A stretch of DNA of 64,000 bases. Origin: Eledone cirrhosa. Taxonomy: Eukaryota. The translations under genes and the position numbers were made by a program. The first letter of the stretch is position 1. Each line of letters begins with the position of its first letter. The stretch covers positions 379,502,001-379,566,000 of the forward strand of contig OZ024741.1 in NCBI GenBank assembly GCA_964016885.1, in the 5' to 3' direction. Shown here one piece after another: positions 4,753 to 63,540 of this stretch. The notes below the pieces were generated by a model. It made no database searches and was not told the DNA's origin. It saw only the letters and a program-made list of their open reading frames with translations.

Positions 4753-6223
4753 AATGAAAAATTGAACAGGGACAGAACAGAGAGGCAGTACAATAAATGT
4801 TTATTAAATTCACGCTCAGGAGAGTGGGGGGTAGAGCATCTACGAACCTTTTGGCTGCGGCCAAGCTAACGAATGCAGATATGGGATGCAGCTTAGCACT
4901 CGATGGAGATTATTACCCCAGAGTTATAACAATACGTTTAGACAGCTTTGCAAATCAAATATAGCGACCGATAGTCTGGCCGCATTGCCATAACAACGAA
5001 AAAACTGAACTCAGGAAAAGATTTTGACTGACCTGGACCATCGCATGGACATCGTATGCAACACATAACGTATAACGAATAGCATACAATATACATCACG
5101 TACACCATACAGCATCCACGCTAGGTTTCTGTAAATCCGTGATCGACATATTCCGCTTGCAGGGGTCTGCAAGTTGATGTCCTTTGACGACAGAACAAAG
5201 GATTTACTTCGTCAACATGTCTTGCGTTCTATAGCCTCGACGGTTGTATATTCTAGCAGTAATTTTCGCTATAGACAGGTGGTTTTCCCAAAGGGAGGTA
5301 ACCTCCGTTTTGGCGCTCAATTCGAAATGTGGGACAAAGGAATGAAATTCCATTAGACAAACCGAATTAAGCACTTAACCAGAAGTTATCAAACAAACAT
5401 AAACAATTAATCAATCAATGGAATTGTCTACTTAAATTAATCAGTTAATCGTTAATTATAGGAGTTAAACATACAAATTTTAGTACAGCTTCAACGAAGC
5501 TTTTCGCTGCCGCCAAGTTACCGAATGCAGATTCAGAATCTAGCTTAGCACTCGATGGAGAATATTACCCCAGAGTTATAACAATACATTTAGACAGCTT
5601 TGCAAATCAAATATAGCGACCGACAGTCTGGTCGCATTGCCATAGCAAAGAAAAAAACTGAAATCTGGAAAAGATTTTGACTGACTTGGACCATCGCATC
5701 GACATCGTATGCAACACATAACGTATAACGAATAGCATGCAATATACATCACATATAACATACAACATCCACGCTAGGTTTCTGTAAATCCGAGATCGAC
5801 AAATTCCGCTTGCAGGTGCTGCAAGATAATGGCCTTTGACGACAGAACAAAGGATTTACTTCGTCAACATATCTTGCGTTCTATAGCCTCGACGGGCATA
5901 TTCTAGCAGTAATTTTCGCTATATACACGTGGTTTTCCCAAAGGGAGGTAACCTCCGTTTTCACGGTCATTTCGAAATTTGGGATAAAGGAATGAAATTC
6001 CCTTAGACAAACCGAATTAATCACTCAATCAGTAGTTTTCAAACAAACAAACAATTAATCAATCAATGGAATTGTCTAATTAAATTAATCAGTTAATCGT
6101 TAATTCTAGGAGTTAAAAATACTAATTTTAGTACAGCACCAACGAAGATATTGGCTACGGCCAAGCTAACGTTTGCAGATTCGGAATGTATCTTAGCACT
6201 CGATGGAGAATATTACCCCAGAG

Positions 6224-6224
<1 letters not shown>
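4753..6224 (-). mobile_element. Tandem ~650-nt non-coding PLE-pLTR/retrozyme-like array (~2.1 units)
   Basis: Motif agcactcgatggag recurs at 4895, 5547 and 6195; (AT)n on both sides; hammerhead-like core in each full unit. Confidence 0.7.
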
Positions 6225-13439: not shown

Positions 13440-15690
13440 GGCGACCTACGTAGGAAATCGTATTATCGTGAGCTCCACAAAGATTTGTTGTTTTCAGTTC
13501 TTTCAAATTGCCAGTTATGGAAAATATTTGTTTAAAGGGTTTAGCAATAGAGAAAAATAGAGCAGAGGGAGAACTAGTTAGAAAATTAGACGAGGCCCGA
13601 GTGGCGGAGGCGCGTCGTGAAAACAAAGCCACGATCCGGTCTTTTGTGTTCCACGACGGGCGTATGTGTGAAGATTTTCAGCGACACTTCGCTCAGCTGT
13701 TCGGGGGCAGCGGCGCGCCGGATCTGGTGATGGACTTTAGTGCCTACCTCGACGGACTGCCGCGACTCTCGCCCACTGAGGTGGAATGTTGCGAAAAGCC
13801 GATAACAGCCGCTGAAGTACGGGAGTCAATGACTGGCTGCACAAGGGGTAAATCGCCTGGTTTGAATGGTCTGCCGTATGAATGTATGTACAGAGGCCAG
13901 ACTTGTTCGGAGGCCTCTTAACGGACGTCTATTGCAACTGGCAACAGAACGGGAGAATTCCCAGCTCTGTAAGCCGAGGAGCGGTGGCGGTGCTGAGAAA
14001 GGATCCGAAGAAGGGGGATAACATAGATAATTTCAGACCTATAACTCTACTAAACACAGAGTTCAAGATTTTGGCCAAGATGCTAGTAAAGAGGTTGCCG
14101 CTTGTCGTTTGCTGTCTGGTGGGAGAGGCGCAGACATGCGCCATTCCCGACAGATCCATCCACGACAACTTCCACCTCATACGATACATCGTAGAGTGGG
14201 TAGCTAGGGAACCTGGCACGCGAGGGTCCTTGATCAATTTAGATCAGTCAAAAGCTTTTGATAGGGTCGACCATCGTTATCTGGCGGCATTCCTGAGGGC
14301 GGCTGGCTTTGGGCCCGTCTTCAGAGGCTGGATCGCTGCCATGCACAGCGACATCTGCTCGGTGGTGAGAGTGAACGGTCACCTTTCGGAACCGTTCAAA
14401 ATCATGAGCTCGGTCCGCCAAAGATGTCCCCTCTCGTCCTTTTTCTACTTATTGACACTCGAGCCCTTACTTAACAAACTGGAGATGTTGAGGGGGGTCC
14501 CGCGCGAACTAGGATGCGGGAGATCCGTGTCAGCATATGTGGACGATGAAACCGTAGTGGTGTCGAACGCCAAACACACCGAGGTGATCGGCACTACACT
14601 AAGAGAATACGAAGCGGTGACAGGAGCAATGATCAACCAGGAAAAGTCAGTAGGCCTGCAGCTCGGCACCTGAAGAGGCAGGACAATGCCACCCAACAGC
14701 GTCGCCAGGCGCTGGAGGGACGGACTGGGTAATTTGCTGTGGGTCTGGTTTGGTCCGAACCTCCAGACGGACAAAAACTGGGACGAGGTGACGAGCAGGA
14801 TGGCTTCTCTAACCCAGAGAGTGGAAGCTATCCCTGAAAGATCAAGCGGAGGTGGCTAACGCGTACATCGCATCCGTCATCTACTACAGCCTGACCGTCG
14901 TGCCTTGACCGAAGCCTCGACTGCGCTGGAGCGTTTGCTCTTTCGCTTTTTGTGGAAGGGACGTGCTCCGATGGTCAGGCGGTCCATCTGCTGTCAACAC
15001 CCGCTACGTGGAGGGCTGGGTTTTGCCTTGGCTGATGATGCGCAGACACGCGCTCAGGCTACGACATCTTCACCTCTTACTCGACGATGTCAGGTGTAGT
15101 CACCGTTTGGTAGACGCGTCTTTCCCCAGCTCGTCTCCTTAACGGAGCTGCAGTCCTGGATTAAGCGAATAGGGAGCGCTTGAAGACCGGAATGTCTTCA
15201 GGCGCTCACAGCCCTTGACCAATCGGGCAATGTGATCGGTGGAAACTCCAGCTTGGCGTTCTATAGAGGATTAGTGGAGGGGAAGTGCGACGACGTACTT
15301 GGGGAAACTCTAGGCGTCGACGAAAATCAACTAGCCAATGTCTTCGGAAGAAATTTCGGACCGGGGCCTATGGACAATTTCCAGAAATCCCTGGCCTGGC
15401 AGTGCTACCGAGGAGCTTTGCCAGTTCGGGATAAACTCTACAGGCATGGAGGTGTCGTAAGCCGAGCAGGTCCGAGATGCGCGCAGCGCCACGAAACCGT
15501 CCTGCACGCACTCGCCCAGTGACCGAGCATTGCTGACTTGTCGGTTTATGTCGAATACATGCTGTCGCGTGTAGGACGCATCCAGCTATCAGCTGATTCC
15601 ATCGTGAGGATTGCCCCGCCCTCTTCCTTTAGCCGGGAAGGGCAGCCACTTTTTATCTGCCATGGCAAAAGAGATTTCATGGTGGACGTG
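13440..15690 (+). mobile_element. Internally deleted L1/Tx1 LINE (5' UTR joined to ORF2 RT region)
   Basis: 13440-13535 matches the 5' end at 15958; GKSPGLNG, FRPITLLNTEFKI, DQSKAFDRV, SAYVDD; many stops. Confidence 0.88.
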
Positions 15691-18900: not shown

Positions 18901-21900
18901 GCGTGGAAGGATGGCGCCTAAAATGCTATCTCTGTGGGTCAAAGGGTCACATCAGGGCCTTTTGCCTGCAGAAGACAACGAAGAAGAAGGCCCTCCTCCT
19001 CCCGATACAGCGGCAGCAGTGGGGGCAACACCAGTAGCTGCACCAGCAAGAAAATCGCCGGAGAGGGCTCCACTACCACCACCAAGAGCCGTAGAGCACA
19101 TACGACTCCCAGATGCCACGCAATCTGACATGGAGTCTGAGGCGGCAGTGTAGTGGCAAACGTCTGCCACAAAAAAAAAACAAAGAAATAATCCCTTAGC
19201 TTCGCCCTCCAAAAGCAAAGGCAAATGATGAGGGGTAAAGGCGACTCGAAGCAAAAGCCACAACAATGACCACCAGCATCACCACATAGCCAACAGCATT
19301 AACAAGAAAACAGTAAGAAAACCAAACCCCCCAAGAGACATTACACAGCCATAAACATGGCGAATAAAGAACTCTTAGAATATATACAGCAGCATACAGA
19401 CATTACAGGCAAATATTACTTCACTACGCCAAGATCAAGAACTTTGCTGAAAAATATAAACATTATTGAAATTAAAATAGAACATTATAAACATTTTTAA
19501 AAAAATAATTCCCCAACGCAGTTGGAGACTTCACAGGGTCGGTTGCCAAGAGGATATACACCGACATCATCTTGGAGACACCCATGACCAGCCAAAGGGA
19601 CGGTTCGACTGTCCCTTTCCCACAGGATCAGGGTAGGTGATTTTTTCTCACTTACTCCATTCCTCACCCAACATGGCCTTACTTAGAATAGCAGTATAAA
19701 TGTACGTGGCCTGTTGTCATCTTGGAAGCATCGATCCCAAGATCTCAAGTCACTAAACATAGATGTTGTGGCCATCAGCGAGATAAGAATTTCCGAAGCA
19801 CGAGATTTCGCACCGATCTTCAGCGGCTACGATGTATACGCACCTTCCAGCCATCCGGGAGCGGGGGGCCGAGTTGCTGTGCTTTTTCGGAGAGGCTTGG
19901 ATCTCTAATACGGGCGATCTTCCTGGACCCGGAAGTTAAGTCGATAGTAGTGGACGTGACAGGCAGCGAAGGCAATGCTTTCAGGCTAGTAGCCGTCTAC
20001 GCCCCAACAGGGGCAGGATGTCCAGATTTATTTAGACGTTTACAGACCTTTCTTAGAACGTCCCTCTCTTTAGTATTAGTGGGTAACTGGAACGGTATCT
20101 TAGATGCACGCTGGGATTATGTGGGGCTATTAAATAAGGGAGGAGGATGTAAAAATCTCACCAACCTGCTCAGACGTTTTCAGCTGTCTAACAGTTATCG
20201 ACTGGATTATCCGAATGTGCCAATGTGGACATGGGCAAACATCATCGGGTCATCAGGATCGAATCTATATAGGGTATTGTGTAGGGAAAAAGAAAAGAAT
20301 AGCGATGGTTGTCCATATTTGAAAGTATTCAACTACTCGGACCACACATGTGTAATCTGTGAAGTCGACTTAGATAGACTTCATAGGCAAGGACCCGGTT
20401 ATTGGAAGCTGAACGCATCTTTCTCGGTGCTCAAAGCTTACAGATCCGGATAAGCGAATTAGTTCAGCGTGCCTTGACGGGTGCGATCGTCAACAACAGG
20501 TGGAGGTTTACCCTGAAAAGAGCAATTAGAGTAGAATCGATAAAGTTTAGCAAAGGAGTAAAGATAGAGCAAAACAGAGTAGAAGGAGAGCTAGTCAGAA
20601 AGCTAGAAAAGGCGTTTAGGACAGGCATCGCAACCGACGTTCTTGCGGCGAGATTGGCACTCGACCAATTCTTCAAAGCAAAACACGAAGGCTGCGTTGT
20701 CAGAGCTAGATCGTGCGCTCTGAAACACGGGGGGACAAAAGCCATCCAATGTGCCCAGGTGGCAAAGGCGCGACGTGGCTTCAAAGCCGCAATTCGGTCT
20801 TTGTCTGACCAAAAGCGGTGCGTGTTGTTCGAACCCGAGCAGATGTGTGAAGCTTTTCAGCAGCACTTTGCCGTACTGTTCGGGAGCAGCGGCGGAGTAG
20901 GAGAGCTAGTTAGAAATCTAGAACAGGCGTTTAGGACAGGCATCGCAACAGACGTGCTTGCCCACAAGTTTCGCACTCGACCAATAATTCAATGCAACGC
21001 AGTGTGGCTGCGTTGTCAGAGCTAGAGCGCGTGCTATGAGACAAGAGGGGACACAAGCTGTCCAATGGGCCTAGGTGGTGGAGGACGACGTGGCAACAAA
21101 GCAGCAATTCAATCCTTTCCTGACCAAATCGGGCACATGTTACTCGAATCCGAGCAGATGTGTGAGACGTTTCAGCCGCACTGTGATCAACTGTTTGGGA
21201 GCGGGGGCGGTACAGATCGGAATATGAACTTTAGTGCATACCTCGAGGAACTGCCACAACTCTCGACAACGGCAGTGCAGTATTGCGAAAAGCCAATAAC
21301 AGAAGTTGAAATCCGGCAAGCGATGTTAAATGCCTCAGCGGTAAATCGCCAGGTTTGGCTGGTCTGCCATATGAGCTTTATGACTACATGCCAGACTTGT
21401 TCGGAGACCTCTTGGCAGGCATCTACTGAAACTGGCAGCAGGACGGGGGTATTCCCAGTTTTGTGAACTGGGGATCGGTGGCGCTGTTGAGAAAAGATCC
21501 GAACGAAGAGGAGGTTATAGACAACTTCAGGCCCATAACGCTGTTAAACACAGATTTCAAGATTTTAGCCTAGGTGTTAGCATCGAGATTGGCGTTTGCC
21601 GTCGGAAATCCGGTAGGAGAGGCGCAGACATGCGCCATTCCAGACAGAACCATCCACGACAACCTCTACCTCATGCGATACATCATAGATAGGGTGGTTA
21701 AGGAACCTGGAATGAGTGGGGGCCTGATAAACTTGGATCAATCCATGGTATTTGATAGGGTCGACCATCGGTACCAGGCGACATTCCCCGAGGCGGCAGG
21801 TTTCGGGCCCATTTTAAGGGGTTGGATCGCTGCGATGCACATCGACATCTGCTCATTTATGAAGGTGGACGGTCATCTGTCACATCCGTTCAGCATCATC

Positions 21901-23635
21901 CGCCAGAGTTGTCACCTCTCATCTCTCTTGTACGTATTGTCCCTAGAGCCGTTACTGCACAAATTGGAGGTGATGAGAGACGTCCCACGCGAACGGAGAT
22001 GTGGGAGGTTTGTATTGGCTTACGCCGACGACCACACCGTGGTAGTGTCAAGCACCGGACATGTCCAGATGCTCGGCACCGCTCTCAAGGAATATACAGC
22101 AGTGACAGGAGCAAAGTTAAACCAGGAAAAGTCTGTAGGATTGAAGCTCGGCACCTGGAGAGGCATGTCCATGCCGCCCGACAGTGTCGTGGGGCACTGG
22201 ACGGAAGGACCGGTTAAATTGCTAGGGGTCTGGTTCGGTCCGGACCGCCAGATGGAGGAAAACTGGAGCGAGGTGACGAACAGGGTTGCCTCTCTCACCC
22301 AGAAATGGGCTGAGAGGAAGCTGTCCTTGAAGGTCGGGTAGAGGTGGCGAATGCTTTCATCGCATCCGTCATCTTCTACCGCCTAACCGTTGTGCCTGCC
22401 CAGCACAACTCTGACAAAAAGGGAGCGCCTTCTCTTCGGCTTGTTATGGAAGGGACGTGCTCCCATGGTCAGGCGATCCATCTGCTGTCAACACCCGTTC
22501 CGAGGAGGGCTGGGCATGCCGTGGCTGATGATGTGCAAGCACGTGCTGAGGCTGCGATATTTCTGATATTTCCTTGACGGTGAACAGATGTGGTCATCGT
22601 CTGGCAGACGTATTTTTCCCTAGGTGTCTCATTAACGGTGGATCAGGTAAAGACGGAAGGATAGCGCTTGGAATCTGGAAAGTTTCCAAGCGCTCACAGC
22701 CTTCTACCAGCTATGCACTAGTATTGGTGGAACATACACCTCGGCGTTCTATAGAGAACTAGTGGAGGGAAAGTGTGGCGACGTTCTCGGAGAGAACCTG
22801 GGCGTCGAAGTCGACCAGCTGTACGCTCTTTTCAAGAGAACTTTCAGACCGGGGCCTATGGACAAGTTCTAGAAATCCCTGGCCTGGCAATGCCACCGGG
22901 GAGCGTTGCCTGTTCGAGATAAGCTCTACAGGCACCGAAGTGCCGTCAGCCGAACCTGTCCGAGATGTCCACAGGGCGACGAAACCGTTTTGCACGCACT
23001 CGTTCAGTTTCCGAGTATTGTTCACTTGTGGGGCTATGTCGAACATTTTCTGTCACGTGTAGGACGGATCCTGTTATCGACTGAGTCCATTGTGCAGATA
23101 GCCCCGCCGTCCTCCTTTAAGGGGTAGGAAGGGCAGGAAGTTTTCATCTGCCTGGTGGCCATGGCGAAAGAGATTGTATGGTGGACAAGGTTGAAAGGAT
23201 TGAAGACGGACACTTTCCTCTTCGGCTAATCCCTGATTATATTTTTCAAGTTTCACTTGAAGAGGAAAATCAGGGTGGAGATGCAAGTTTTTTCTTCTAG
23301 TAAGTTTGCTGAAAGGTGGGTGAAGGTGGCGAGTCTGGTCCGAGGAAACGGGCCCGCTCTGAATATGCGCCTGTAGACTGTGATGTGGATAGCTGAAAGA
23401 GGGCGCTTGCCCTGGTGGTCAAAGTGGTTGTGTTCTTTTGTGTGGTTTTATCCACGAATGACCCTTGGAAGTTTCCCCCTATTGAGGAATTTTTGTTCTT
23501 TGAATATTTTTGATATTTCTACCCTCATGTTATAACCTTTTTTAAACGGCCAAAATCCATTTCGCATCGTCCTGTACGGTTCTGTGCGCTCTGTATTGTT
23601 TTTCTTCATGTTAGCCCTTGTGGCCAATAAATGAA
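15958..23635 (+). mobile_element. Near full-length degenerate L1/Tx1 LINE: two ORF1-like regions, ORF2 (APE, RT, zinc knuckle)
   Basis: ORF1 knuckle RLKCYLCGSKGH; ORF2 from ~19673 with NVRGL, AVYAP, GNWN, SDH, GYWKLN, DQSMVFDRV, AYADD, CPRC..DETVLH; AATAAA plus (TTA)n. Confidence 0.9.
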
Positions 23636-28419: not shown

Positions 28420-28483
<64 letters not shown>

Positions 28484-28523
28484 GATATTAAATAAATGGA
28501 AACTATATTTATAAAACCATATT

Positions 28524-28590
28524 TATTTCATTATATATATTTCAGGGATATCATATTAAAAATATGGTATGCCTTCTTCAGACAAAATAC
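28524..28590 (-). ncRNA. Type I hammerhead ribozyme (PLE pLTR)
   Basis: gtattttgt-CTGAAGA-stem II-GAAA-TATATA-TA-atgaaata. Confidence 0.8.
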
Positions 28591-28858
28591 AATATAAACA
28601 GTCTTATAAATAGATAGATTTGACATACCTTACAACTTCAACTTCCATTTAAAAAGTTGATTTGGTAGTGAAAAATGTTAGGGACAGTTATAAAAAGAAA
28701 GAAAGAAAAAAAGCGAAGAAAAAGAGCGAAGAAAAAGAAGAAATGCATTCAACTAAACAGAGAGAGATAGATATAGAGAGATAGATAGAGAGAAGGAATT
28801 CATGTAAAGAAACAGAGAGAGATAGATAGAGAGAGAAAAAACACAGGGGGAGATAGAT

Positions 28859-28890
<32 letters not shown>

Positions 28891-30027
28891 AAAAATAGAG
28901 AGAGATAGATATAGATAGAGATAGAGAAAAAGAAAATAGGTAGTTGGGCACCAGTTGAATGACGTATCCATGATATATTTATTTATTTATTTATTTATTT
29001 GGTTCTAGTATTAAGGTAGAGAGAGATATATGTGGTTAGGAGAGAAAACAGCCGTTACATAGAGAGAAAAGAAAAATATCCAGAGATAAACGAGGCAGAT
29101 TTAAAACATTATGTTTCATCAACGTAAAAATATCAATTCGTATGAATTAGGTATTATAATGTAAATATCAGTATTCATGAATGAGACACGTATCAATAAT
29201 GTGTGAAAAATAATGATCATATGTCTAGTTTAAAATTCCTAGGTTTATATCAGAACTGAGTTAAAAAACTGAGATAAAAAAAACTGAGATAAAAAACTGA
29301 GATCAAAAAAAAAAAAAAAAAAAACTTCAAAAAAAAATTGAAATACATAAGTATATATGCACTTTCATGAAAAAAGAAAAAAAAGAAAAAGAAAAAGAAA
29401 ATAGAAGGTTATCCCAGATTCGATACTATAGACTTCCATATGAATTTACGTGATCAACTCTGCAAATTCCTATTTCACATGAAAACATTCTCATTGTGCT
29501 ATAAAAATTCTAGTATACATACATGTGTACATACACACAAATATATATAGAATCTACATTAATTTTAACAATACTATTCTTGTCTTTACTCTACATGATT
29601 ATCGTTCAAGCATAAATAGACAACAGATATCAATATATCAATAAAAATATCAAAAAATAAAAAAATATTAAAAATAAAACACAGTATGCCCCGCAAATCA
29701 ACCACAGAGATCAACCCTTCAAAATTAATTGACAATATATTGCCAAGTTCATTATAAGCATCAGAATCAAAAGCAAACAAAACCAAAATTATTTACCAAA
29801 TCCTGTCTAGCAGAAATCATTCCAAAAGTTTAGGATACTCATTTGATCTACAGATGTTCTTATATTTATTATAGAAGTTTATCTAGTGTAAAATTTATTC
29901 GATATATTTGGAGCATCAGCTTTTAGGGTAGTTTAATTATTCATGAAGAATGTTTAAGAAAAAAAAAAAAAAAAAAAAAAAAAAGAAATCGAAAGATTTA
30001 TCGGCGAGTTTCATAAATAATTATATA

Positions 30028-32277
30028 TCATAAGTAAATATACAACATTTTAAATTTATATTTATATTTAAAAGTTGAGTTCAATCTATGTCTGCAGCAA
30101 CTGAATAAATTTGTCCGTAAATTAAGGGAATTTTTAGATTTTAGTATAAAGAATATCTCCTCCGCGCAGAGGTCACATGTCTCAGAGGATGAATTAAAAG
30201 GAATCCCTCTTGAGACTATATTCCAAGCCGTCGAATATCCAACGTTATCATGCTTAAGTTGCCAGAGTAAGCCTGATAGTGATGTTGAAGATTTTTTGCT
30301 TGGATCTGTGAAAGAATTCTTGTGGTTATTATAGCGAAGTTTAAATTCTGTCGAAGTCGAACCAACATAGTTAAAAGAATTTAAGTCCGTTTTAACATTA
30401 CAGTTGTATATTATATTTTTAACTAAGCAATTGTTATTTAACGGACATTTAGACCTATCTCTACAGTTACATTTGTTTACTTGGATATTATTTATGCTAT
30501 TATCGGTATTTTGGCTAAGTTTTAAATTCCTATTATTTATTCTATTAATATTTTGTGCTAAATTTTTGGTGGATGAGTAAGTTAATTTTATAGTATGTCT
30601 ATTGAAAATTGAGTGATACCTATGTGTTGTAGGGAAGCGATTATCAAAAGCATTAAAAAATAGTTTAGCGATGTGGGTTTTAATGTTTAGTGAGAAGGGG
30701 GGGGGGGGGGGGGGGCAAACCATATTATATTCCTAGTTCTATTTCTTTTTTGGCTTTTGGAATTATTGTAATGCTTTCTATTATAGTTGTTAAAGTTGTT
30801 GCCGTAATTAAAATTGTTGTTATTTTGGTTAGTTTGTCTATTATTATCTATGTACATAATTTTATCACTATATCCTGCTCTAGCTAACGCTTCATTGTAA
30901 TACTGGGCTTTTTCGTCGAAAATCTTTTTATTAGATGAGATTCTAGAGATACGTTTTTGAACAGAGTTCACTATAGTATTTTTAACAGATCTGGGGTGGT
31001 TAGAGTTAAAACTGACATAGTTTAAGTTTTCATTCAACTTGTGAAATGGATAGTGAAGACATGTGTTGAGATTTAATGTTACATCTAGGAAATTGACTAT
31101 TCTATGGTTATTCTCAATTTCTATTTTTAGATTAAAGTAATTAAAAAATTGTGTAATTTGTTTTCTTTTTCTATTTAGTTCAGAGTTATTATTTTCAATA
31201 AGTAAAAGCATGTCATCTCTATATAAACCTCCGGTAGCACCGGGTATTTTCCTATGCAGCGAATTGATTATAAATAGGCCCACAAGGTCAGTTACCTGAG
31301 CTGAGTCGGATGATCCCATAGTAATGTCGAAATTGTTATCTCTATCTGCTCTGGTCCATAGTTGGTCATTAAATTCTATCAATGTTTTCCTAGCCGATAA
31401 TATAATGTGCATTTCATCGCTAGTTAGGTCTGTATGTTTGAATGCGTAATTTAGTGCCTTATTTAGTAGATTAGGGGTAATAGATGAATAATAGTTAGCA
31501 ATATCTAGTTGAATAAATGTATTATTATTGTTATATTTAATTTCTTTAAACCACTCAATAACCTCTCCAGTTCCCTTCCACAAGCTCAAGTTAGGTAAAC
31601 AATTCAAGTTTTTAATTTGCTGTATCACCCTGTCTAGAATGTTTTTGCTTAGTTTACCCAGGTCAGATTTTGATGGTGCAATCAATCTGACTGGCAGGTC
31701 ATTTTCAAAATTTCTTTTTGTGGTCTTTCATATTGATCTTCGGTTTCCTGGGCACGAAAGGTTGTGTTCTGTTCTCAATTTCCAACTCATGCATTATACA
31801 AGATGCCTCAACATTCATTTTCTCAAGCTCGGCCTTATCTGCTACCTTGTACTTTTTCCTCAGTTCTTTCAGTATGAGGCCATTATACATGTCATTTTGC
31901 ACTCCATAGAGGTTGTTGGTCTTGTCAGATTTCACCAAGATCTTCTCGGTTTTCTCTAAGCTCTCAATATTATCCTTAATGCCTTTCAGATATTCCTGGC
32001 CTTTGAAGATTCTCTTGAATTTGACTCCTTGTATGATAGAAATTATATCGTTTTCAAAGTCAAATAAAAGTTTGTTGGGGGGTGGATTTTTTTTAGATTT
32101 GAAAACTTTGTCTAGGTCCGAGACATTTTCATTTATATTAGATTTATCAAAGTGGAATGCACGCCACCCGATTCTCCTTATAAAAGAGTCCGATTTATCT
32201 ATTAATTGTTTAATAAAGTCTTTGTTTCTAGGTAGAGGTATGTCTTTTAAAGAGGAAGAAATCTTAAAGAATTCCAT
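30028..32277 (-). CDS. PLE RT-GIY-YIG polyprotein (~750 aa) split by two frameshifts in homopolymer runs
   Basis: SLKDIPLP, KSDKT, DIANYYSSI, ITMGSSDSAQ, GLYRDD, FLDVTL, SNHP, CNC..CPL...CL, IIY..YVGST, CDLC, CRH; breaks at ~31710 (A run) and ~30700 (C run). Confidence 0.85.
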
Positions 32278-32455
32278 TTTTTCAGTTATAATATAAAGCG
32301 CTCAACAGTATTGGAGCGAGATATATGCAAAGTTTTATTTAAATTGTTGGGTTACAACGAGTAAATATTTATAACTGATATAAAAGCTCTCAACAAGTAT
32401 TTGGAGTATATTTACGATATTAAATAAATGGAAACTATATTTATAAAACCATATT

Positions 32456-32522
32456 TATTTCATTACATATATTTCAGGGATATCATGTTAAAAATATGGT
32501 ATGCCTTCTTCAGACAAAATAC
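32456..32522 (-). ncRNA. Type I hammerhead ribozyme (pLTR copy)
   Basis: CTGAAGA...GAAA-TATATG-TA. Confidence 0.78.
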
Positions 32523-32749
32523 AATATAAACAGTCTTATAAATAGATAGATTTGACATACCTTACAACTTCAACTTCCATTTAAAAAGTTGATTTGGTAG
32601 TGAAAAATGTTAGGGACAGTTATAAAAAGAAAGAAATAAAAAAAGCGAAGAAAAAGAGCGAAGAAAAAGAAGAAATGCATGCAACTAAACAGAGAGAGAT
32701 AGATATAGAGAGATAGATAGAGAGAGAAAAAACACAGAGGGAGATAGAT

Positions 32750-32783
<34 letters not shown>

Positions 32784-33296
32784 AAATAGAGAGAGATAGA
32801 TATAGATAGAGATAGAGAGAAAGAAAATAGGTAGTTGGGCACCAGTTGAATGACGTATTCATGAAAGTGCATATATACTTATGTATTTCATTTTTTTATC
32901 TCAGTTTTTTTAACTCATTTTTTTAACTCAGTTTTGATATAAACCTAGGAATTTTAAACTAGACATATGATCATTATTTTTCACACATTATTGATACGTG
33001 TCTCATTCATGATTACTGATATTTACATTATAATACCTAATTCATACGAATTGATATTTTTACATTGATGAAACATAATGTTTTAAATCTGCCTCGTTTA
33101 TCTCTGGATATTTTTCTTTTCTCTCTATGTAACGGCTGTTTTCTCTCCTAACCACATATATCTCTCTCTACCTTAATACTAGAACTAAATAAATAAGTAA
33201 ATAAATAAATATATCATTGATACGTCATTCAACTGGTGCCCAACTACCTATTTTCTTTCTCTCTATCTCTATCTATATCTATCTCTCTCTATTTTT

Positions 33297-33328
<32 letters not shown>

Positions 33329-33595
33329 ATCTATCTCCCTCTGTGTTTTTTCTCTCTCTATCTCTCTCTCTCTGTTTCTTTACATGAATTCCTTCTCTCT
33401 ATCTATCTCTCTATATCTATCTCTCTCTGTTTAGTTGAATGCATTTCTTCTTTTTCTTCGCTCTTTTTCTTCGCTTTTTTTCTTTCTTTCTTTTTATAAC
33501 TGTCCCTAACATTTTCACTACCAAATCAACTTTTTAAATGGAAGTTGAAGTCGTCAAGTATTTCAAATCTATCTATTTATAAGACTGTTTATATT

Positions 33596-33662
33596 GTATT
33601 TTGTCTGAAGAAGGCATACCATATTTTTAATATGATATCCCTGAAATATATATAATGAAGTA
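33596..33662 (+). ncRNA. Type I hammerhead ribozyme (inverted pLTR copy)
   Basis: CTGAAGA-AGGCATACCATAT..ATATGATATCCCT-GAAA-TATATA-TA. Confidence 0.8.
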
Positions 33663-33788
33663 AATATGGTTTTATAAATATAGTTTCCATTTATTTAATA
33701 TCGTAAATATACTCCAAACACTTGTTGAGTGCTTTTATATCAGTTATAAATATTTACTCGTTGTAACCCAACAATTTAAATAAAACTT

Positions 33789-33850
<62 letters not shown>

Positions 33851-33852
<2 letters not shown>

Positions 33853-34062
33853 AGAAAGTATGACCACGATGGCAGAGCTCAAGCCGTTTCGACGGCTATT
33901 TCTGGACTAAAGTCTTTATTCCAGAAATAGAAATAGCCGTCGAAACGGCTTGAGCTCTGCTGTCGGGGTCATACTTTCTCCTATTACCCACTCTACTACG
34001 CTAAGTATTGAGTACTCTGGTGCGTTATGGTCCATCTGGTTCCTTACCACAACACCTCCGTT
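33851..34062. mobile_element. Inverted pLTR-end mini-insertion of the 47507-50730 PLE family
   Basis: Two opposed partial copies of GAAACGGCT..GCYGTC end; hairpin at 33990-34016; (AT)n flanks. Confidence 0.75.
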
Positions 34063-34212
34063 ATATATATATATATATATATATATGTAGGAGGTGAGTT
34101 TTATTGTAGTACAATAAAGCAATGCAGATATCGGATAAGAAGCACTCTACAGTTTGTGGGACTGGAGTATGCATAATATAAGATCAAAAGATGGTTAAAG
34201 GAGTTCAATATA

Positions 34213-34279
34213 TTTTATTATGCGCATTTCAAAAACAAACATCATCAAACAATAATATTTGTGTTTTCATCAGATAAAA
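34213..34279 (-). ncRNA. Type I hammerhead ribozyme
   Basis: Mirror copy of 34404-34470. Confidence 0.82.
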
Positions 34280-34403
34280 CAGGAGAACATGATATGAAGG
34301 CTAAAAAAACACTTGTTGATAGTGCAGTTTTAAATCAACATATGTTGATTTAAAACTGCACTATCAACAAGTGTTTTTTTAGCCTTCATATCATGTTCTC
34401 CTG

Positions 34404-34470
34404 TTTTATCTGATGAAAACACAAATATTATTGTTTGATGATGTTTGTTTTTGAAATGCGCATAATAAAA
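34404..34470 (+). ncRNA. Type I hammerhead ribozyme
   Basis: ttttat-CTGATGA-stem II-GAAA-TGCGCA-TA-ataaaa. Confidence 0.85.
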
Positions 34471-34502
34471 TATATTGAACTCCTTTAACCATCTTTTGAT
34501 CT

Positions 34503-34545
<43 letters not shown>

Positions 34546-34702
34546 AAGGTTAAACAAGGTTCAATGAATAAATCAAAGAATGAGTTTTACAATAGATTGG
34601 AAGCACTCAACAGATGGTTTTCCGGAGTTATTAATATTAATTAAATGCTAACGTTAATGAATCTTAACCATCTACTATATCAGGGTATCTCATGCATCAT
34701 AT

Positions 34703-34769
34703 TATTTTATCTGATGAGGAGGAACTGTTGAAGTTAACTCAGTACCTCTGAAATATCTATAATAAAATA
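34703..34769 (+). ncRNA. Type I hammerhead ribozyme in mini-element 34543-34812
   Basis: tattttat-CTGATGA-GGAGG..CCTCT-GAAA-TATCTA-TA-ataaaata. Confidence 0.78.
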
Positions 34770-34812
34770 TACTTGATCATAAGAATATCTATTTTGTTAA
34801 TATTTTGAATTA

Positions 34813-34843
<31 letters not shown>

Positions 34844-34981
34844 AGCAGAAAGGGTATTCAATTTGTTGGTAATTCAACAAATATAAATGTTTATAAATGA
34901 TTTCAGAGCACTCGACAGGATTTCTGGAGTATAATATTCAATGATATTAAATAAATGGAAACTATATATATAAAACCATAT

Positions 34982-35045
34982 GTATTCTATTATATATATT
35001 TCAAGGGTAACAAAAACTTTGGTACGCTTTCATCAGATAAAATAC
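34982..35045 (-). ncRNA. Type I hammerhead ribozyme in pLTR remnant starting at 34843 (relative of the 28482 family)
   Basis: gtattttat-CTGATGA-AAG..CTT-GAAA-TATATA-TA-atagaatac. Confidence 0.8.
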
Positions 35046-35593
35046 AAAGTGTGTTTTGTAAATTTTGACATAGGCAAGGAACATACCTTAACGGTTGAAG
35101 TTTCCCTTGGATACTGGATTTAAGACAGATTTTTTCAAAATTGTTAAGATGAGTATGCAAATGAATATGTAAATGAGGTTGAGGTATATGTTTGAAAAAA
35201 AAACTTATTTTAGACGCTATGGAGAATTTAGATATGTGATTGTATGTGTCGGAATGAAAGAAAAGGAAGAACAAGAAAAAGAAGAAGGAAAAAAGAAAAG
35301 AAGACCTCGTATTTACGTTAATTTGGGGGAACAAATTTGAATATTTATCTATATTATGTATATACTTATTACAATATTGTAGTAGGTTATATGTATACAT
35401 ATCTGTATATATTAATAATTGCATATGTATTAGTATTAAAGAGATATAGATAATTTATAATTATTAGTTGTATATAATATGAGTTATGAGGGAAATTGAT
35501 TTTGTGTTTTATGTAAATAAATAGGTAGTTCAAGTTATGAGAGTAGAACACTTTAAAGATTTGAATATTTTGTTCAGCATTGAAAATGTTTTC

Positions 35594-36942: not shown

Positions 36943-39404
<2,462 letters not shown>

Positions 39405-45727: not shown

Positions 45728-46122
45728 AAGATATCAAAAAATAAATATGGTATTTATAGGTCTCCTCAGGTGGTAGGAGAGGGTAGGGAGTGGGACGGGT
45801 GTAGGTCATTGGTTTCATAGAAAAGGGAATTCATTAAAATCTAATTCTTCAAAGCTATAGTTTATATTTAAAGTAACAAAGGCAGAAAGAATTCTATAAA
45901 CAAGATCAGAATGAGGTGCCACTCCTTATTTTTAAGTTTCTCTTAAGCTAACAATGCCTAGATTTCAGGTTTCAATAAGATCATTGGGGGTCAGTCATGG
46001 TTGATGGATTTAAATAAAAAGGGAAATCCTTTAAAAGCTAATTCCGTAAGGTTCTACTTAGTGACAAATGCCTAGAGAATTCTATAGACCAGTTCAAAAT
46101 ATTGAGTGCATATGATGCCATT

Positions 46123-46190
<68 letters not shown>

Positions 46191-46375
46191 GTTAATATGC
46201 CCGTGGGTACTAAGTACCCCTGGAAATATATAGGTTGTCTATGATTTAAGGTTGTTCTATGGTATTAATTTGACATACCAGAACTATAATATTAAGATAA
46301 GCAGAACAAGCAAAATTCAACCAATTTTTTAAAATAAATTAAATAATATAATTTAAATATTTACCTATTCTTTTG

Positions 46376-46455
46376 GCCCTTACCGATCGGTTTCGCTTTG
46401 TAAAACACCAGAAATCCAATGGATTTCTAATGGAAAATCAAAGCTCATCAGAGAA
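46376..46455 (-). ncRNA. Type I hammerhead ribozyme (inverted arm)
   Basis: Reverse complement of 46791-46872. Confidence 0.85.
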
Positions 46456-46790
46456 GCATTTTCCTTTCCTAGGGCTAAAGACCCAGGAACGATAAAATAT
46501 ATTGCATAGAACAACCTTAAATCATAGACAACCTATATATTTCCAGGGGTACTTAGTACCCACGGGCATATTAACTTCTTCTATTATTCTCTGTTATGTT
46601 GAGAACAAATCTGTTGTTTCTATTTAGCTGCTATTTTTAGTAACGAGATAGATAACACGTCTATGCTTTTCCCGCTTTCACCTCGGGCAGTTCACGTACG
46701 GGTTATTTTTCGGCCTTTTGGATCTGTGCTAGCTGGCAGATAACAATATATTTTATCGTTCCTGGGTCTTTAGCCCTAGGAAAGGAAAAT

Positions 46791-46872
46791 GCTTCTCTGA
46801 TGAGCTTTGATTTTCCATTAGAAATCCATTGGATTTCTGGTGTTTTACAAAGCGAAACCGATCGGTAAGGGC
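46791..46872 (+). ncRNA. Type I hammerhead ribozyme
   Basis: ttct-CTGATGA-GCTTTG..CAAAGC-GAAA-CCGATCGG-TA-aggg. Confidence 0.87.
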
Positions 46873-47268
46873 CAACAGAATAGGTAAATATTTAAATTAT
46901 ATTTTTTAATTTATTTTAAAAAATTGGTTGAATTTTGCTTGTTCTGCTTCCTTAATATTATAGTTCGGGTATGTCAAATTAATACCATAGAACAACCTTA
47001 AATCATAGACAACCTATATATTTCCAGGGGTACTTAGTACCCACGGGCATATTAACTTCTATTATTCTCTGTTATGTTGAGAACAAATCTGTTGTTTCTA
47101 TTTAGCTGCTATTTTGAGTGACGAGATAGACAACACGTATATGCTTTTCCCGCTTTCACCTCGGGCAGTTCACGTACGGGTCATTTTTCGGCCTTTTGGA
47201 TCTGTTCTAGCTGGCAGATAAGAATATATTTTATCGTTCCTGGGTCTTTAGCCCTAGGAAATGAAAAT

Positions 47269-47350
47269 GCTTCTCTGATGAGCTTTGATTTTCCACTAGA
47301 AATCCTTTGGATTTCTGGTGTTTTACAAAGCGAAACCGATCGGTAAGGGC
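47269..47350 (+). ncRNA. Type I hammerhead ribozyme (second unit)
   Basis: Same core as 46791-46872. Confidence 0.87.
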
Positions 47351-47430
47351 CAAAAGAATAGGTAAATATTTAAATTATATTTTTTAATTTATTTTAAAAA
47401 ATTGGTTGAATTTTGCTTGTTCTGCTTATC

Positions 47431-47506
<76 letters not shown>

Positions 47507-47507
<1 letters not shown>

Positions 47508-50500
47508 CGAAGGAAATGTGGTAAGGAACCAGATGGACCATAACGCACCAAAGTACTCAATACTTAAGGTAGTAGAGTGGGTAATAGGAACTTGTAGGAC
47601 CCCGACGGCTGAGATCGAGCCGTTTCGACGGCTAATTCTGGACTAAATGAACATTTGTATCCTGGTATATGAATAGCCGAGCTTCTCAGGGGGTAATTCC
47701 ATATATGGTAAAAGTGATTGTCACAAGGATTGGTCAACAGTTTGTTGTTGAAACATAATTATTCTATCATGGCAATTTGTGGAAGGAAGGGGTAGCTGAA
47801 CCTGTCAGTAGAAGAAAGAGGGAGAGGGGGTGGAGGAACCCAGTCGTGCGTTGATAGTGCCAACTACAGCTGGGCAGGAGGTCAAAGAAGATACTAGGGA
47901 GGGGGGAGTCGAAACAATAAGTAAAACAATATGGGGTAAATATATAGAAAAATACCGAGTGTTAAAAAGCAATTAAATGTAAAAAAAAACAATTTCTGGT
48001 TACTATAACATAAGGACAGCTATCAAGTCTCTCACTGGTACTGCTAGACTCAAGAAAGGTTTACTAGATGGGACGGAATTATAATGAGACCCTTTTAAGA
48101 GGTATAAGTATACAACCGAATATATCTTACGGTGACGGGTCAACAAGTGGGGGGCCAAAATACTAAAGAAAATACCACTAAATAATAATTCAGAGTCCCG
48201 AGACCAGTACGAAATAAAGGTTTCCGCCCCAGGCACAAGGCCAGCAACCACCCAGTGCAAAAAAAAACAAAAAAAAAACTAATACGAAATAATAATTTAG
48301 AATCGCGAAAAAGAATACTAATACTATCTAGAAGGGTGCCGCCACGATACACAAATTCAAGTGCAAACTACATAAATGCTCGTACGAGGTATATGTAAAA
48401 TTTAATACGGAAAATAATAAATACTGATATGCGAGAAATTAAAGCAAAGATACCACTAAGAAATATAGAAAGCACGGAAAAGGGGCAGCCATCGGATAAG
48501 AAGGCAAGTATCCGGGGTCTAACACATCTGCTATAAAAAGCGGAGTCGGCCAAATTTTAACTTAGAATAGGGGAAGGGGGTGGGGGTATTGAGGCTACAA
48601 AGGACCGAGGGACTGCCTCGGGTGGGTGAGAAAGTAAAAGGACGACGACAAAGAAAGAGGACTGGAGGAAGGTATGGGGGGAAGAAGGAAATATAGAGGA
48701 AGCAATAAATAGATATAAAAGAAGATCTTACGTCTACCTTTGCAAGCAGGGGTTACCCATTACACAATCGGCAAGTGGGGTGTTATAGCCCTTGTCTAAC
48801 CCCCCCCCGGTCATTATGGGGATTGAGGGCGAGGTAAGTCCTATGCAATCTGTGTTTACATGCAGTTGGTCCGTCGAAAACAGTATTTGTAATGTTTCCC
48901 CCGAGCCTAAATTGCACGGACGGCGTCCTCCCGTGTAAGAGTTGGCTCTGGACAGTAAGCTCCAAGTGAGATTATAGGTTATATTGTTATCCTTGAGCTC
49001 CCATATGTGGCCCGAAAGTGTAGTGGCGTGACGCCGGGGCGGGTTACGGAAGGTATGTCTGTGTTGGTATAGCCGGGTCTTGAAGTCACATGCGGTTAAT
49101 CCTATATAAGCTTTGTTGGAGGTGTCCGTCCTCACGTTGCGCTCGTAGATCACATTACCATCTCTGCATCTGTTGTCGAGGGGGCAAATTGATACATCAG
49201 GACAGTTAAACCTCCTGGTCGGCTCTCCACTGCTATGTAGGTTATTTCTTCCATAGGGGTTGAGTTTTTTGTTGTTAGAGGAGACGATGTTTTGTGCAAA
49301 GATAGTTGTAGTGCTGTAGGAGAGTTTGATGGTATTTTTGTTAAAGTATGTTGTGGTAGCGGTGTTGTAGTGGGAAGTGTTTTTCGATGAGCAGAAAGAA
49401 GATTTTCCCGATAGGAGTTGTCACCTCGGTGTTGTGGGGAGGATTGAACCCTGTTACGTTGCGTGACCGGCGGTGTCGCCTGCTGGTTCCGCTAATGGAA
49501 GCTGGACAGTAGGATATTTCCTCCTGGAAACCACTCCGCTTGAGGGCCTGGTTGTAATAAGGCGCATGTTCCTCGAATATTTGCTCATTAGCTGACAAAC
49601 GAGATATGCGGAGGGAGATGTTTTTAGCCAGGTTATTGGTGATGTTCCTAGAATGGTTTGACAGACGGTGGATGTAGTGCAGATTGTCGTTAGGTTTCCT
49701 GTATGGGTAGTACAGATGATTATCGAGGTCAACGGTGACGTCCAGGAAGTTTACTAGGGTCAGGGACGTTTGTAGGGTTATTTTAAATCCCCAGTCGCGG
49801 AAGAAGCTGATTAATTGTTTACGGAGTAGATCTGTACTACTGGGGTGGTAACCTTTAAGTGTAGGAGCCCATCATCACGGTACAATCCACCGCCGAATGC
49901 AGGAAACATATCGGTGAATTTTCCGTATCAAATTTTACATATACTTCCTACGAGCATTTATGTAGTTTGCACTAGAATTTTTGTATCGTGGCGGCACCTT
50001 TAGAGATAGTATTAGTATTCTTTTTCGGGATTCTGAATTATTATTTCGTATTAGTTTTTTTTTTTTTTTTTGCACTGGGTGGTTGCTGGCCTTGTGCCTG
50101 GGGTACAAACCTTTATTTCGTACTGGTCTCGGGACTCTGAATTATTATTTAGTGGTAGTTTCTTTAGTATTTTGGCCCCCCACTTGTTGACCCGTCACCG
50201 TAAGATATATTCGGTTGTTTACTAATACCTCTTAAAAGGGTCTCATTATAATTTCTTCCCACCTAGTAAACCTTTCTTTAGTCTAGCAGTACCAGTGAGA
50301 GACCTGATAGCTGTCGTTATGTTATAGAAATTGTTTTTTGACACTCTCGGTATTTTTCTATATATTTACCCCATAATGTTTTACTTATTGTTTCGACTTC
50401 CTCCCCCTCCCCCTCCCTAGTATCTTCTTTGACCTCCTGCCCAGCTGTAGTTGGTACTATCAACGCACGACTGGCTTTCCTCCACCCCCTCTCCCTCTTT

Positions 50501-50730: not shown

Positions 50731-50785
<55 letters not shown>

Positions 50786-51046: not shown

Positions 51047-51088
51047 ACGCTGTACTAGTTTCAAGCTTATTAGCTATCGTCAGCAACG
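51047..51088 (-). ncRNA. Minimal type I hammerhead ribozyme
   Basis: Mirror of 51346-51388. Confidence 0.87.
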
Positions 51089-51593: not shown

Positions 51594-51650
<57 letters not shown>

Positions 51651-51652
<2 letters not shown>

Positions 51653-53459: not shown

Positions 53460-54430
53460 GTTCACAGATTGATTTTTTTAGTTTCAGAAAATCCCGTTAA
53501 GGGTGAAAGCAGCGATTCTGTGCCTAAACTTTAATCTGTTATTTTAATAAATATTTGCTCTACGGTTCTTGTATATTTGATACATATTTATCCTTATCAA
53601 GCCCTCTTTGGATATTAGTCTTCAAATTTATTATTATTACTATTTGGCTCCCTCGATTGAGCACTCTTTTGACTTATATTCATCATGCAGAAACAACATA
53701 TGAATATTTCTACAAAGAACATACCCGTACCAAGCAGGAAAACATAACTAAAACTCCTGATACAGAAAACAGACGCGGTCATTAAAAGGTTGCGTTTGCG
53801 TGCTTTTTATTTCGATAACCAGGGAAGATCGGACAACAAACAGGATAAATTTGGGTTTACAACTTACAATAACCCTCCGATAACCCAGCATTGCTACCCT
53901 TCGAAAATAATGTCTTGGAACACATACGGAGTATCAAATTTCGGAATAGGAGCAAGTCCTTCCAGCAGGACCTGAAGAAATAGAATTTGTTCTATTAAGG
54001 ATTATAAGGCCGTACACGTCCACTCCGACAAAACTGGCAAGCTATATCAAGTGGAACGCAGTACTTATAATCAACTGCTACATAATGCTGAGGATTACCG
54101 TAAAACTAATCGGAGCGTCATTAATGACATCAACGATGCTGGGTTTAAAATCACCTCTGATCTCAACATCCTGGACCGGACTGACCTTCTGGACCCGATT
54201 TCCCCCACTTTACCCTGAAGGATCACGAATCCAATTTCTCGAACAGCCCCTCTATTTGGCTTATTAACCCTACGAAGTTCGATTTAGGTAGACTTAGTAA
54301 AAGGATTTTAGATAGAATTATACCTGAAATTAGAAGTGAGGCCTCTCTTGCAGTGTGGAAACATTTTTTCGCGGTGATTGATTGGTTCAACGGCATATGC
54401 AACAAGGAACATTGCCATTTTATCCATTCT
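53460..54430 (+). pseudogene. Degenerate 5' part of a Hydra-clade-like PLE
   Basis: ATG 53685 MQKQHMNISTKNIPVP..KRLRLRAFYF, HSDKT, LINPTKFDLGRLSKRILD; decayed hammerhead ~53463-53522; hairpin 53647-53665. Confidence 0.75.
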
Positions 54431-62653: not shown

Positions 62654-63328
62654 AAAATGAAGATAAATCAAAATGAATTTAATCTAAATCAAAATGATGA
62701 GTGTCATGCCAGAAAGGCATGCGCCATATCACCCGTAAAGTAAGCTCCAAGTTTCTAATGAATAGGTCCGAGCATTTTATAACAACTAGAAATTGATTAA
62801 CATATAAACAAACATATGAAACAATCACAAGGGATACTTTTTACAATTTAGATTAAATTTAGATTAAATTCATTTTGATTTATCTTAATTTTGGATATTT
62901 ATATAAATACGACTCCTTAATTGTAGAGCTAACTCTGTTGAAAGGACTTGACTGCTGTTTCTAGTTGTCGATAACCCTATTCACGCCACTGGTGCGAAGC
63001 TGGTATGATGTGTGTATTTTTAGTAGATACAGCACGTGTTACTGGCCAGTCGGTGATTTGAACTTAATGCGTAAACACAGATCGCTAGACTTCTTCCTTG
63101 TTTAAAATCCAAGTATCGGCCTGTGTGGTTTACCATTCGATTAATTGGTGAAATATATTTCTTTAATGGAATATATACAGGGAAGATTAATCATATTATA
63201 AGGTATCTATTTTTGAAGTTCTAGTTAACTTTATTTAGTTACCTACCTAACTATGTGTACTTACACACTTGTAAAGATTATCCCGTGATTGTTTCATATG
63301 TTTATTTATATGTTAATCAATTTCTAGT

Positions 63329-63387: not shown

Positions 63388-63540
63388 AGCAAGAAAGTAA
63401 GTGTGGGTAAGATCTAGTACTTCAGTATGCGTATAGGGAGCACTCAACGAAGATATAAGTTCTGGAATTATAATATATGTCCCAAGGCTCTGATACCATC
63501 AACACTATACACACAGAGCTGGCATATCTAAGAACTGACT

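Follow-up and report, generated by a model that had tools for sequence, protein, structure and literature searches.

A twin bulged hairpin at the insertion ends of Hydra-clade Penelope-like retroelements in Eledone cirrhosa, a putative signal for both cDNA starts

Results

The focal insertion and its protein

The window analyzed was a stretch of 64,000 nucleotides of the Eledone cirrhosa genome (contig OZ024741.1, positions 379,502,001 to 379,566,000), and the subject was a Penelope-like retroelement (PLE) within it, together with the two bulged hairpins, hp1 and hp2, before which its insertions end. The whole focal insertion (28483..33791, no strand assigned) lay between two (TA)n runs and consisted of a main arm and an inverted arm. 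The main arm, on the minus strand, contained a 5' pseudo-long terminal repeat (pLTR) with a hammerhead, hp1, hp2, an open reading frame (ORF), a 1.5-kb 3' untranslated region (UTR), a second hammerhead and a short end at 28483. Its 3' pLTR end (28483..28600, minus) stopped 7 nt before the expected start of hp1. The ORF of a Hydra-clade reverse transcriptase (RT) with a GIY-YIG endonuclease (EN) occupied 30046..32277 (minus) in three frames, broken near 31727 and at a C run near 30720. The inverted arm (32858..33791, plus) carried a pLTR copy with a hammerhead, hp1 and a tail, with its long end at the site termed site 2 below. Hammerhead cores were located by descriptor at 32513 (minus), 33605 (plus) and 28581 (minus, within the 3' pLTR end); the first belonged to a minimal type I hammerhead of the 5' pLTR (32456..32521, minus; core 32513-32472). 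The order on the sense strand of the focal pLTR was hammerhead, hp1, hp2 and ATG.

Judged by its protein, the focal element is a Hydra-clade PLE, because the protein carries the marks listed in PMC8557442: RWR, DKT, CxCx5C, CxxC and CxH, with no CCHH. A single ORF of an RT with a C-terminal GIY-YIG was present; it was intact, at 742 aa, at two other loci of the genome (L182 and L186), the EN motif being recognized by eye. RWR and DKT were found in the intact copies and GWR in the window copy, and 48 of 61 homologues had the RWK-type motif and 60 of 61 DKT. The linker CNCRDRSKC (CxCx5C), CDLC and CRH of the focal protein were matched in 60/61, 54/61 and 57/61 homologues, respectively, and no CCHH motif was found in the focal protein by inspection. 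Pfam gave no match on the three ORF pieces of the window. The RT tree was built from the fetched relatives only, without the published Hydra references, and the focal protein formed a long branch in it. A pLTR hammerhead of the Hydra-clade type was present as a predicted ribozyme matched by descriptor, for which Rfam returned no match, and the insertion target was (TA)n, as in the Hydra clade. The focal unit of ~3.9 kb exceeded the <3 kb that is typical, not strict, for Hydra elements, due to the 1.5-kb 3' UTR.

The twin hairpins and their sites

The intact hp1 (ACTC CAAACACTTG TT GAGT, then GCT) was located at 33711..33733 (plus; hairpin proper to 33730) by sequence and by models. The hp2 (GCTC CAATACTG TT GAGC, then GCT) was located at 32297..32317 (minus; hairpin proper from 32300), 19 nt before the ATG, with a model E-value of 7e-5. 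The hp1 of the read-through pLTR (32385..32407, minus; proper from 32388) had a private basal-stem change to GAGA, seen in 1 of 48 copies tallied. These three hairpins and the ATG at 32277 had been named in an earlier sequence-only reading of the window, and their positions were borne out. Site 1 was a patch at 32408..32414 (minus) with UA at -7, and short ends stopped after 32415. Site 2 was an AU-rich patch at 32318..32326 (minus) with UA at -8 and -6, and long ends stopped after 32327. The same reading had placed the two (TA)n junctions of the insertion just 5' of a hairpin, and the last unambiguous bases agreed with it, 28483 being 7 nt before hp1 and 33791 being 9 nt before hp2; both positions were blurred by TA microhomology.

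A descriptor of the fold alone was rejected, since its 37 window matches were barely above chance (shuffle mean 22.65, maximum 36). When the 3' trinucleotide was added, 11 matches were obtained in the window against a mean of 1.05 (maximum 4) in 20 local shuffles, and 44 matches against 14-22 in shuffles over 800 kb of other stretches. Two covariance models, R1 and R2, were built from metagenomic sequences alone. The top 12 matches of R1 and the top 11 of R2 in the window were all among the sites of the sequence-only reading; the scan missed those at 713, 7625, 39175, 46079, 62912 and 63439 and the family E hairpins. A tight pattern gave 967 matches in the genome and none with the reversed control. 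The random stretches yielded 80 model matches, or 53 after collapsing tandem-array copies, and 41 of the 53 had (TA)n 10-90 nt downstream, compared with 7.8% of random places. The remaining ones were mostly hp2 copies or had another repeat at the end, and about three looked like chance matches. The matches were therefore concentrated at pLTRs.

Positions of the insertion ends

Focal loci were collected with a query spanning both hairpins, with a query stopping upstream of both sites, and from random stretches. The focal family provided 34 short ends (33, and L187 by inspection), 32 long ends and 27 read-through copies. Of the 66 free ends, 65 fell at site 1 (7 nt 5' of hp1) or site 2 (9 nt 5' of hp2), the remaining short end being ~8 nt early. 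The ends of families B, C, D, E, F and K behaved like those of the focal family, and the sites used in each family were two fixed ends, 5-9 nt 5' of two hairpins.

In a test that started from junctions, 743 (TA)n flanks were taken from 864 kb, and 46 clusters, each represented by two or more ends and by a read-through copy, were kept. The descriptor began 0-14 nt 3' of the junction in 0.235 of the read-throughs, as a mean over the 46 clusters, versus 0.028-0.035 in three controls. It was present in most copies in 12 clusters, in any copy in 16 and in none in 30. Clustering of junctions 5' of the hairpins, as the sequence-only reading had expected, was hence observed. Among the metagenomic relatives described below, 11 of 14 3' pLTR ends, taken as flank junctions and read by eye, were within 12 nt of a hairpin foot.

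Pairing of long and short arms

The two arms of an insertion ended differently. Across six families, 43 of 46 two-armed insertions were long+short, one was long+long, two had an odd end and none was short+short. The 46 were made up of 39 insertions (36 long+short) and 7 further pairs (7/7 long+short). For family D, the query used to collect loci bore the tail, so that one arm was long by design and the partner arm was free. A one-sided tail on inverted pLTRs is already known from PMC3846280 and PMC8557442.

The short arm reached further 5' than the long arm, with no internal read-through, in 4/17 insertions of family A and 3/10 of family D (the 10 rows of the latter include W, L162 and L078, which were unreadable; family B, with repeat-bearing references, was kept outside this result). 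In at least seven insertions the short arm thus held sequence missing from the long arm while the long arm held the tail, so neither arm was a copy of the other. This bears on the explanation in which RT starts only once, the first cDNA then folding back and being copied up to the other site to give the second arm. Some small insertions are indeed exact palindromes (L053), and self-priming was proposed for rotifer Penelope palindromes (PMC3846280). However, each arm had sequence missing from the other in the family A and D insertions counted above, and the ORF was carried by either arm. Fold-back as a general route was refuted by the private sequence of the arms, although it may still apply to some palindromes, and overall it is very unlikely. 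When the three pLTR copies were compared within six full insertions to trace the one that had templated the inverted arm, the differences inside an insertion equaled the differences between insertions.

The UA in front of the hairpins

Of 64 metagenomic hairpins, 61 had a TA dinucleotide starting between -8 and -5, with peaks at -6 and -8. Shuffled controls gave means of 29 and 35, and other 4-nt windows gave 16-30, of 64. In the host genome, the UA was present at 11/11 of the used sites listed and was missing at the single unused site, hp1 of family J. The signal includes this conserved UA at -8 to -5, which the sequence-only reading had left out of its account.

Family J was a 651-bp tandem unit without a hammerhead (4898..6224, minus), with hp1 at 4898-4924, 5550-5576 and 6198-6224 and an hp2 with an 80-nt loop at about 5375-5465. 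Its hp1 was a perfect hairpin with TA only at -10, -4 and -2. At 19 loci no end was found at hp1 (site 1), 18 ends lay before hp2 and no inverted arm was seen. The hairpins listed earlier at 4895, 5547 and 6195 were hence true hairpins, but their family never ended before them.

Conservation and covariation in distant relatives

A profile of the 61 homologues led to 77 metagenomic loci with a protein identity of 30-38%; a single-protein scan of metagenomes and a profile scan of viral contigs gave no relatives. The hairpins were searched for with sequence anchors only, and pairing was not imposed. The motif was UA at -8 to -5, GCUC, a stem, a U-led bulge and GAGC, followed by AC. It was found at 47/77 loci, giving 79 distinct hairpins, and its density was 3.0/kb on the sense strand beside the ORF compared with 0.15-0.30/kb elsewhere. 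Where 150 nt of upstream sequence was available (53 loci), 33 loci had at least one hairpin and 22 had two. The order was hammerhead, hp1 and hp2 (55-74 nt start to start), with the ATG 13-42 nt later.

This closeness of hp2 to the ATG would be expected if the twin motif were a promoter, packaging or translation signal that the ends adjoin through the TA-richness of the patch, and an internal promoter has been described for Penelope pLTRs (PMC2377424). The pLTRs are AT-rich throughout, yet the ends were at two sites only; the UA was kept at a fixed distance, and non-coding tandem passengers retained both hairpins. Such a function is a most improbable explanation of the ends.

Inner pairs 1-3 were Watson-Crick in 70/77, 44/66 and 29/40 hairpins against permuted means of 40.7, 19.5 and 10.3, and none of 20000 permutations reached the observed values. 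The result held in the hp1 and hp2 classes separately. On the RT tree, pair 1 of hp1 underwent 8 changes on the left side and 7 on the right with only 8 jointly, i.e., the sides moved together, and the corresponding values for pair 2 were 12, 10 and 14. A pair counter agreed (covariation of 0.29 versus 0.09, with the alignment fitted to the model), also on 12 seeds. The stem base was nearly fixed at GCUC/GAGC, then AC, and changed in step in this host only: A-U for G-C, and GTTC/GAAC and TCTC/GAGA in family E. Covariation was thus present by each of these measures, but it lay mainly in the inner stem, not in the basal pairs as proposed earlier, which were almost fixed in sequence.

By eye, hp1 after the hammerhead was recognized in the published consensi Hydra-2_Amil (coral) and Hydra-2_Ajap (sea cucumber). 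Hydra-1_Ajap started with hp1, hp2 and ATG and stopped before hp1, and Hydra-1_Amil had a weak variant of the motif.

The fixed sequence of the stem base could also indicate that the GIY-YIG endonuclease reads the motif in DNA, cuts at the upstream TA, and trims or resolves an intermediate. Cleavage by the D. virilis endonuclease depended on the tail, as cited in PMC11167929, EN-mediated resolution was suggested in PMC8557442, and in 2/19 family J copies the 5' end met (TA)n no more than about 8 nt from hp1. On the other hand, the remaining family J 5' junctions were scattered, a covarying inner stem with a variable loop requires a single strand, and hp2 is not in the DNA that ends at site 2. 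Reading of the motif in DNA is quite unlikely.

Other families in the window

Family D hp1 was found at 33990..34013 (plus) and 47555-47578 (minus), and in a damaged form at 51700-51723 (minus), with Hydra ORF pieces at 48839-49823. Family C hp1 lay at 34144..34168 (minus), its partner short arm ending at 34510, and family F hp1 at 34910..34930 (minus). Family K hp1 was at 39175..39204 (plus), with a Hydra ORF at 37091-38529 and a short arm ending near 36940; the first basal pair was mismatched in both full copies. Family E, a non-coding 478-bp tandem unit bearing a hammerhead, had hp1 with a GTTC/GAAC basal stem at 46254..46284 (minus) and 46963-46993 (plus) and hp2 with TCTC/GAGA at 47066..47082 (plus) and 46588-46604. 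Family B hp2 preceded a Hydra ORF at 53647..53662 (plus), and its hp1, damaged here, began near 53557. The hp1 of a further family was at 63442..63468 (minus), and its short copies ended at the hairpin foot.

The sequence-only reading had listed the same fold at numerous positions. For the families at 33990, 34141, 34907, 39175, 46254/46963, 46588/47066, 47552, 51697, 53647 and 63439, an end just 5' of the hairpin was found. Family G hp1 at 34605..34628 (minus; listed at 34602) matched the models, and the element ended 60 nt beyond it, but a short copy was not seen. The looser versions at 713 and 62744 (713-742 and 62744..62773) fitted when read on the minus strand, the closing pair being G-U, and their family ended 7 nt before the hairpin. 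The hairpin at 62912-62929 (plus), of the same element as 62744, was a candidate by its fit in sequence. Those at 7625 and 46079 were antisense to their elements, had no junction and were not supported. The ATTC/GAGT basal covariation rested on these two and a single copy at 63439. The little similarity claimed among the families was too strong a statement for 34907, 34602 and 34141, which resemble the focal family around the hammerhead.

Several further features of these families were recorded. No canonical hammerhead core was found in families B (53485-53530) and D (47600-47650); in the former one base of the core was changed, and in the latter a strong GNRA-like hairpin stood in its place. 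Helix II of the family K hammerhead (39004-39112) was apparently unusually long, ~90 nt. An array of at least 12 units of 617 bp (L072:7750-10000 and L073:1-6640) had both hairpins, an hp2 loop of 100 nt and no hammerhead found, and ended in (TA)n just before hp2. Retrozyme-like tandem arrays bearing a hammerhead were seen at L082 (310-bp units), L098 (466-bp units) and L091; the L082 array formed a large inverted structure with an end before a reduced GCTATTTCAGAGC hairpin. At 33792-35100 and 46120-47510, PLE arms of different families were chained, the (TA)n runs of one serving as the insertion site of another. Fragments of other RT elements (RVT_1 matches) lay at 13882-14673 and 21574-22341.

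Other PLE clades

The motif is not universal to PLEs but belongs to the Hydra clade and its passengers, and the earlier claim that it marks PLE ends stands within these limits. No GCTC/GAGC hairpin was present in the tail of one Neptune family, and the motif was missing after both ends of one Poseidon-like family. Of the matches to five 9-letter words of the 3' arm, the 4 in the six Hydra consensi were in place and the 3 in the Naiad and Chlamys files were out of context; the search misses words split by line ends.

The Poseidon-like family (L069:8408-8520; window 52416-52981), with an ORF starting inside the pLTR, had two ends, each directly before ATATCG and a weak stem closing with GATA, possibly a twin signal of its own. 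The Neptune family (3' ends at L064, L078 and L097) had a TTGAAAA hammerhead core and two ends 65 nt apart. A Neptune-type PLE at 7900-10328 (minus) had a CxxxxCxxC linker, a GIY-YIG and Pfam matches, with one stop, one frameshift and a 97-bp duplication of the 5' end. A large palindromic insertion at 50783-51651, of a family linked to Neptune in L068, had ends followed by TATCG...CGATA.

Discussion

Proposed mechanism

The twin hairpin is real and Hydra-specific, and it is likely an RNA docking signal that sets both starts. It was proposed that each hairpin in the RNA docks an RT, with the UA pairing to the nicked (TA)n end and extension beginning there; we assign this reading a probability of about 0.72. 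It takes up the two fixed ends, the long/short pairing, the inner stem covarying on a fixed base and the UA at -8 to -5. In this course of events, each hairpin would bind one RT, and the endonuclease would nick both strands of (TA)n. Once a nicked end had paired with the UA, RT would extend from there; two RTs, probably dimerized on a single RNA, would use site 1 for one strand and site 2 for the other. Head-to-head joining of both cDNAs would then leave an inverted pLTR, and the tail with hp1 would lie on just one side. Such a two-start signal would likely explain the long-known one-sided tail of PLE insertions.

Daughters have no hp2 at the 3' end; the template would therefore have to be a tandem transcript or a hammerhead-made circle, and a template of this kind was suggested in PMC4209133. 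A circle formed by cleavage and ligation, or a tandem transcript, would place both hairpins downstream of the ORF, which is the least certain step. Since hp2 is missing from DNA ending at site 2, it could act only in the template for that end.

A structure conserved at a fixed distance from the cDNA start was found here, as in RT-binding cis elements of retrotransposons. The in vitro work on the Poseidon protein of anole is consistent with docking on RNA: this protein nicks and extends both strands from two internal starts whose interval equals the tail, RNA to +172 was needed although the start was at +111-118, and a dimer was modelled (PMC11167929). The identity of the tail with the hp1-hp2 interval, put forward by the sequence-only reading, was supported, but the idea had already been published for Poseidon (PMC11167929). 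The same study bears on a further explanation, in which the RNA is cut or terminated at the UA under the direction of the hairpins, after which its new 3' end serves for ordinary target-primed reverse transcription (TPRT). Such a route would leave an identical genomic footprint, and for the anole element the RNA-seq reads end at the start sites (PMC11167929). RT, however, started inside an intact template, and the product was unchanged by 3' extensions (PMC11167929); RNA cutting also leaves the UA match to the target repeat and the long/short pairing unexplained. It is regarded as unlikely.

Several points weigh against the docking of RT on the two hairpins. The in vitro work concerned another clade and another sequence, and neither strand preferred one start (PMC11167929). 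The long/short pairing was also found in the Poseidon-like (9/11, two odd) and Neptune (5/7, two odd) families without this hairpin, and pairing alone therefore does not implicate it. The family J test was one family, noticed after the fact. Of the 46 junction clusters, 30 were without a strict match, some being damaged hairpins and others belonging to other clades, and 3/14 metagenomic 3' pLTR ends, read by eye, were not before a hairpin. No hairpin was found upstream in 20/53 metagenomic loci with enough upstream sequence. By eye, Hydra-1_Crog was a purine-bulge variant, and Hydra-1_Obim had no clear motif. The bias of G-U over A-C in inner pairs 1-3 was slight (9 versus 3), and the case for the strand therefore owes more to logic than to wobble. 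Folding energy seldom favored the bulged form (z of -0.27 to -2.83 in 8 folds), and other registers often won; this fits a structure held by protein, yet is no evidence for one.

A wider proposal, to which we give slightly less than even odds, concerns double TPRT in PLEs generally. A dimer would sit on two hairpins of one, possibly circular, RNA; each subunit would nick one strand, pair it with the UA and copy, and both ends would be first-strand cDNA. The Hydra twin hairpin might then be the readable form of a ruler in every EN+ clade, a minimal, ancestor-like counterpart of the anchor and primer-alignment patch of telomerase RNA.

How PLEs choose their start, and how inverted arms with a one-sided tail originate, are questions that have stood for two decades. 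A 30-nt motif at fixed spacing allows direct experiments and offers a minimal RNA for structure work. The twin motif is also a marker tying non-coding retrozyme-like repeats to their driver and, if the system were used for RNA-templated insertion, a portable start signal.

Comparison with known systems

The Hydra-clade PLEs of Craig et al. 2021 (PMC8557442), which are C-terminal EN+ elements, share the protein motifs, the pLTR hammerhead and (TA)n as target, and they too form partial tandems and inverted arms with the tail on one side. The focal unit of ~3.9 kb with a tail of 50-105 nt differs from the <3 kb and 30-40 bp given there. The terms 'hairpin' and 'stem-loop' do not occur in the text of that paper, and the motif sits unremarked in its consensus file. 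Poseidon of Anolis (Frangieh et al. 2024, PMC11167929) resembles the present system in its two internal starts with an interval equal to the tail, in the use of both strands, in the RNA needed 3' of the start and in a predicted dimer; it differs in clade and in having its starts in an 'AC-rich stem loop' inside the ORF. A conserved bulged hairpin, a UA patch or a long/short rule is not described in the text of PMC11167929, the image of figure S2 aside. The metazoan non-LTR retrozymes (PMC7229834, PMC7761336 and bioRxiv 10.64898/2026.07.22.740005) are, like family E and similar tandem units, short non-coding hammerhead repeats tied to pLTRs. According to PMC7761336 their repeats show no conserved motif for a driver, whereas family E has both hairpins and both ends used.

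Rfam gave no match in the window at the gathering score and none on the focal hairpins, and 8 of the 77 metagenomic loci gave two tRNAs only. No description of the motif was found in the full-text literature that could be searched, outside which most subscription papers and bioRxiv supplements lie. The sequence-only reading knew of no description of the motif, and neither Rfam nor this literature gave a described match.

The 3' stem-loops of stringent LINEs and their SINEs (L2, CR1) and the 3' UTR of R2 are small RNA structures, recognized by RT, that license TPRT. The likeness lies in an RT-recognized RNA structure that is borrowed by non-autonomous passengers. The LINE and R2 structures, however, lie upstream of a single start at the RNA 3' end and are copied, whereas the Hydra motif occurs twice, each time 3' of a start, and does not enter the cDNA that it would position.

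PLE RTs are the sister group of telomerase RTs. In the alignment region of telomerase RNA and in hepadnaviral epsilon, an RT is anchored on an RNA structure near a short primer-pairing patch at a fixed distance. Epsilon is also a bulged stem-loop, but it templates from the bulge and uses a protein primer, and the Hydra element differs from telomerase RNA in having no repeat addition. No relation of the motif to telomerase RNA or epsilon was found by sequence or Rfam. In L1 twin priming, both target strands prime on one RNA, resulting in an inversion; there the second start relies on chance microhomology and occurs in a minority of insertions, whereas in Hydra both starts are fixed and pairing is the rule. 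The clade and RT-recognized RNA structures were thus already known, and what is new here is the doubling of the structure and its place 3' of the start, from which it would set both ends.

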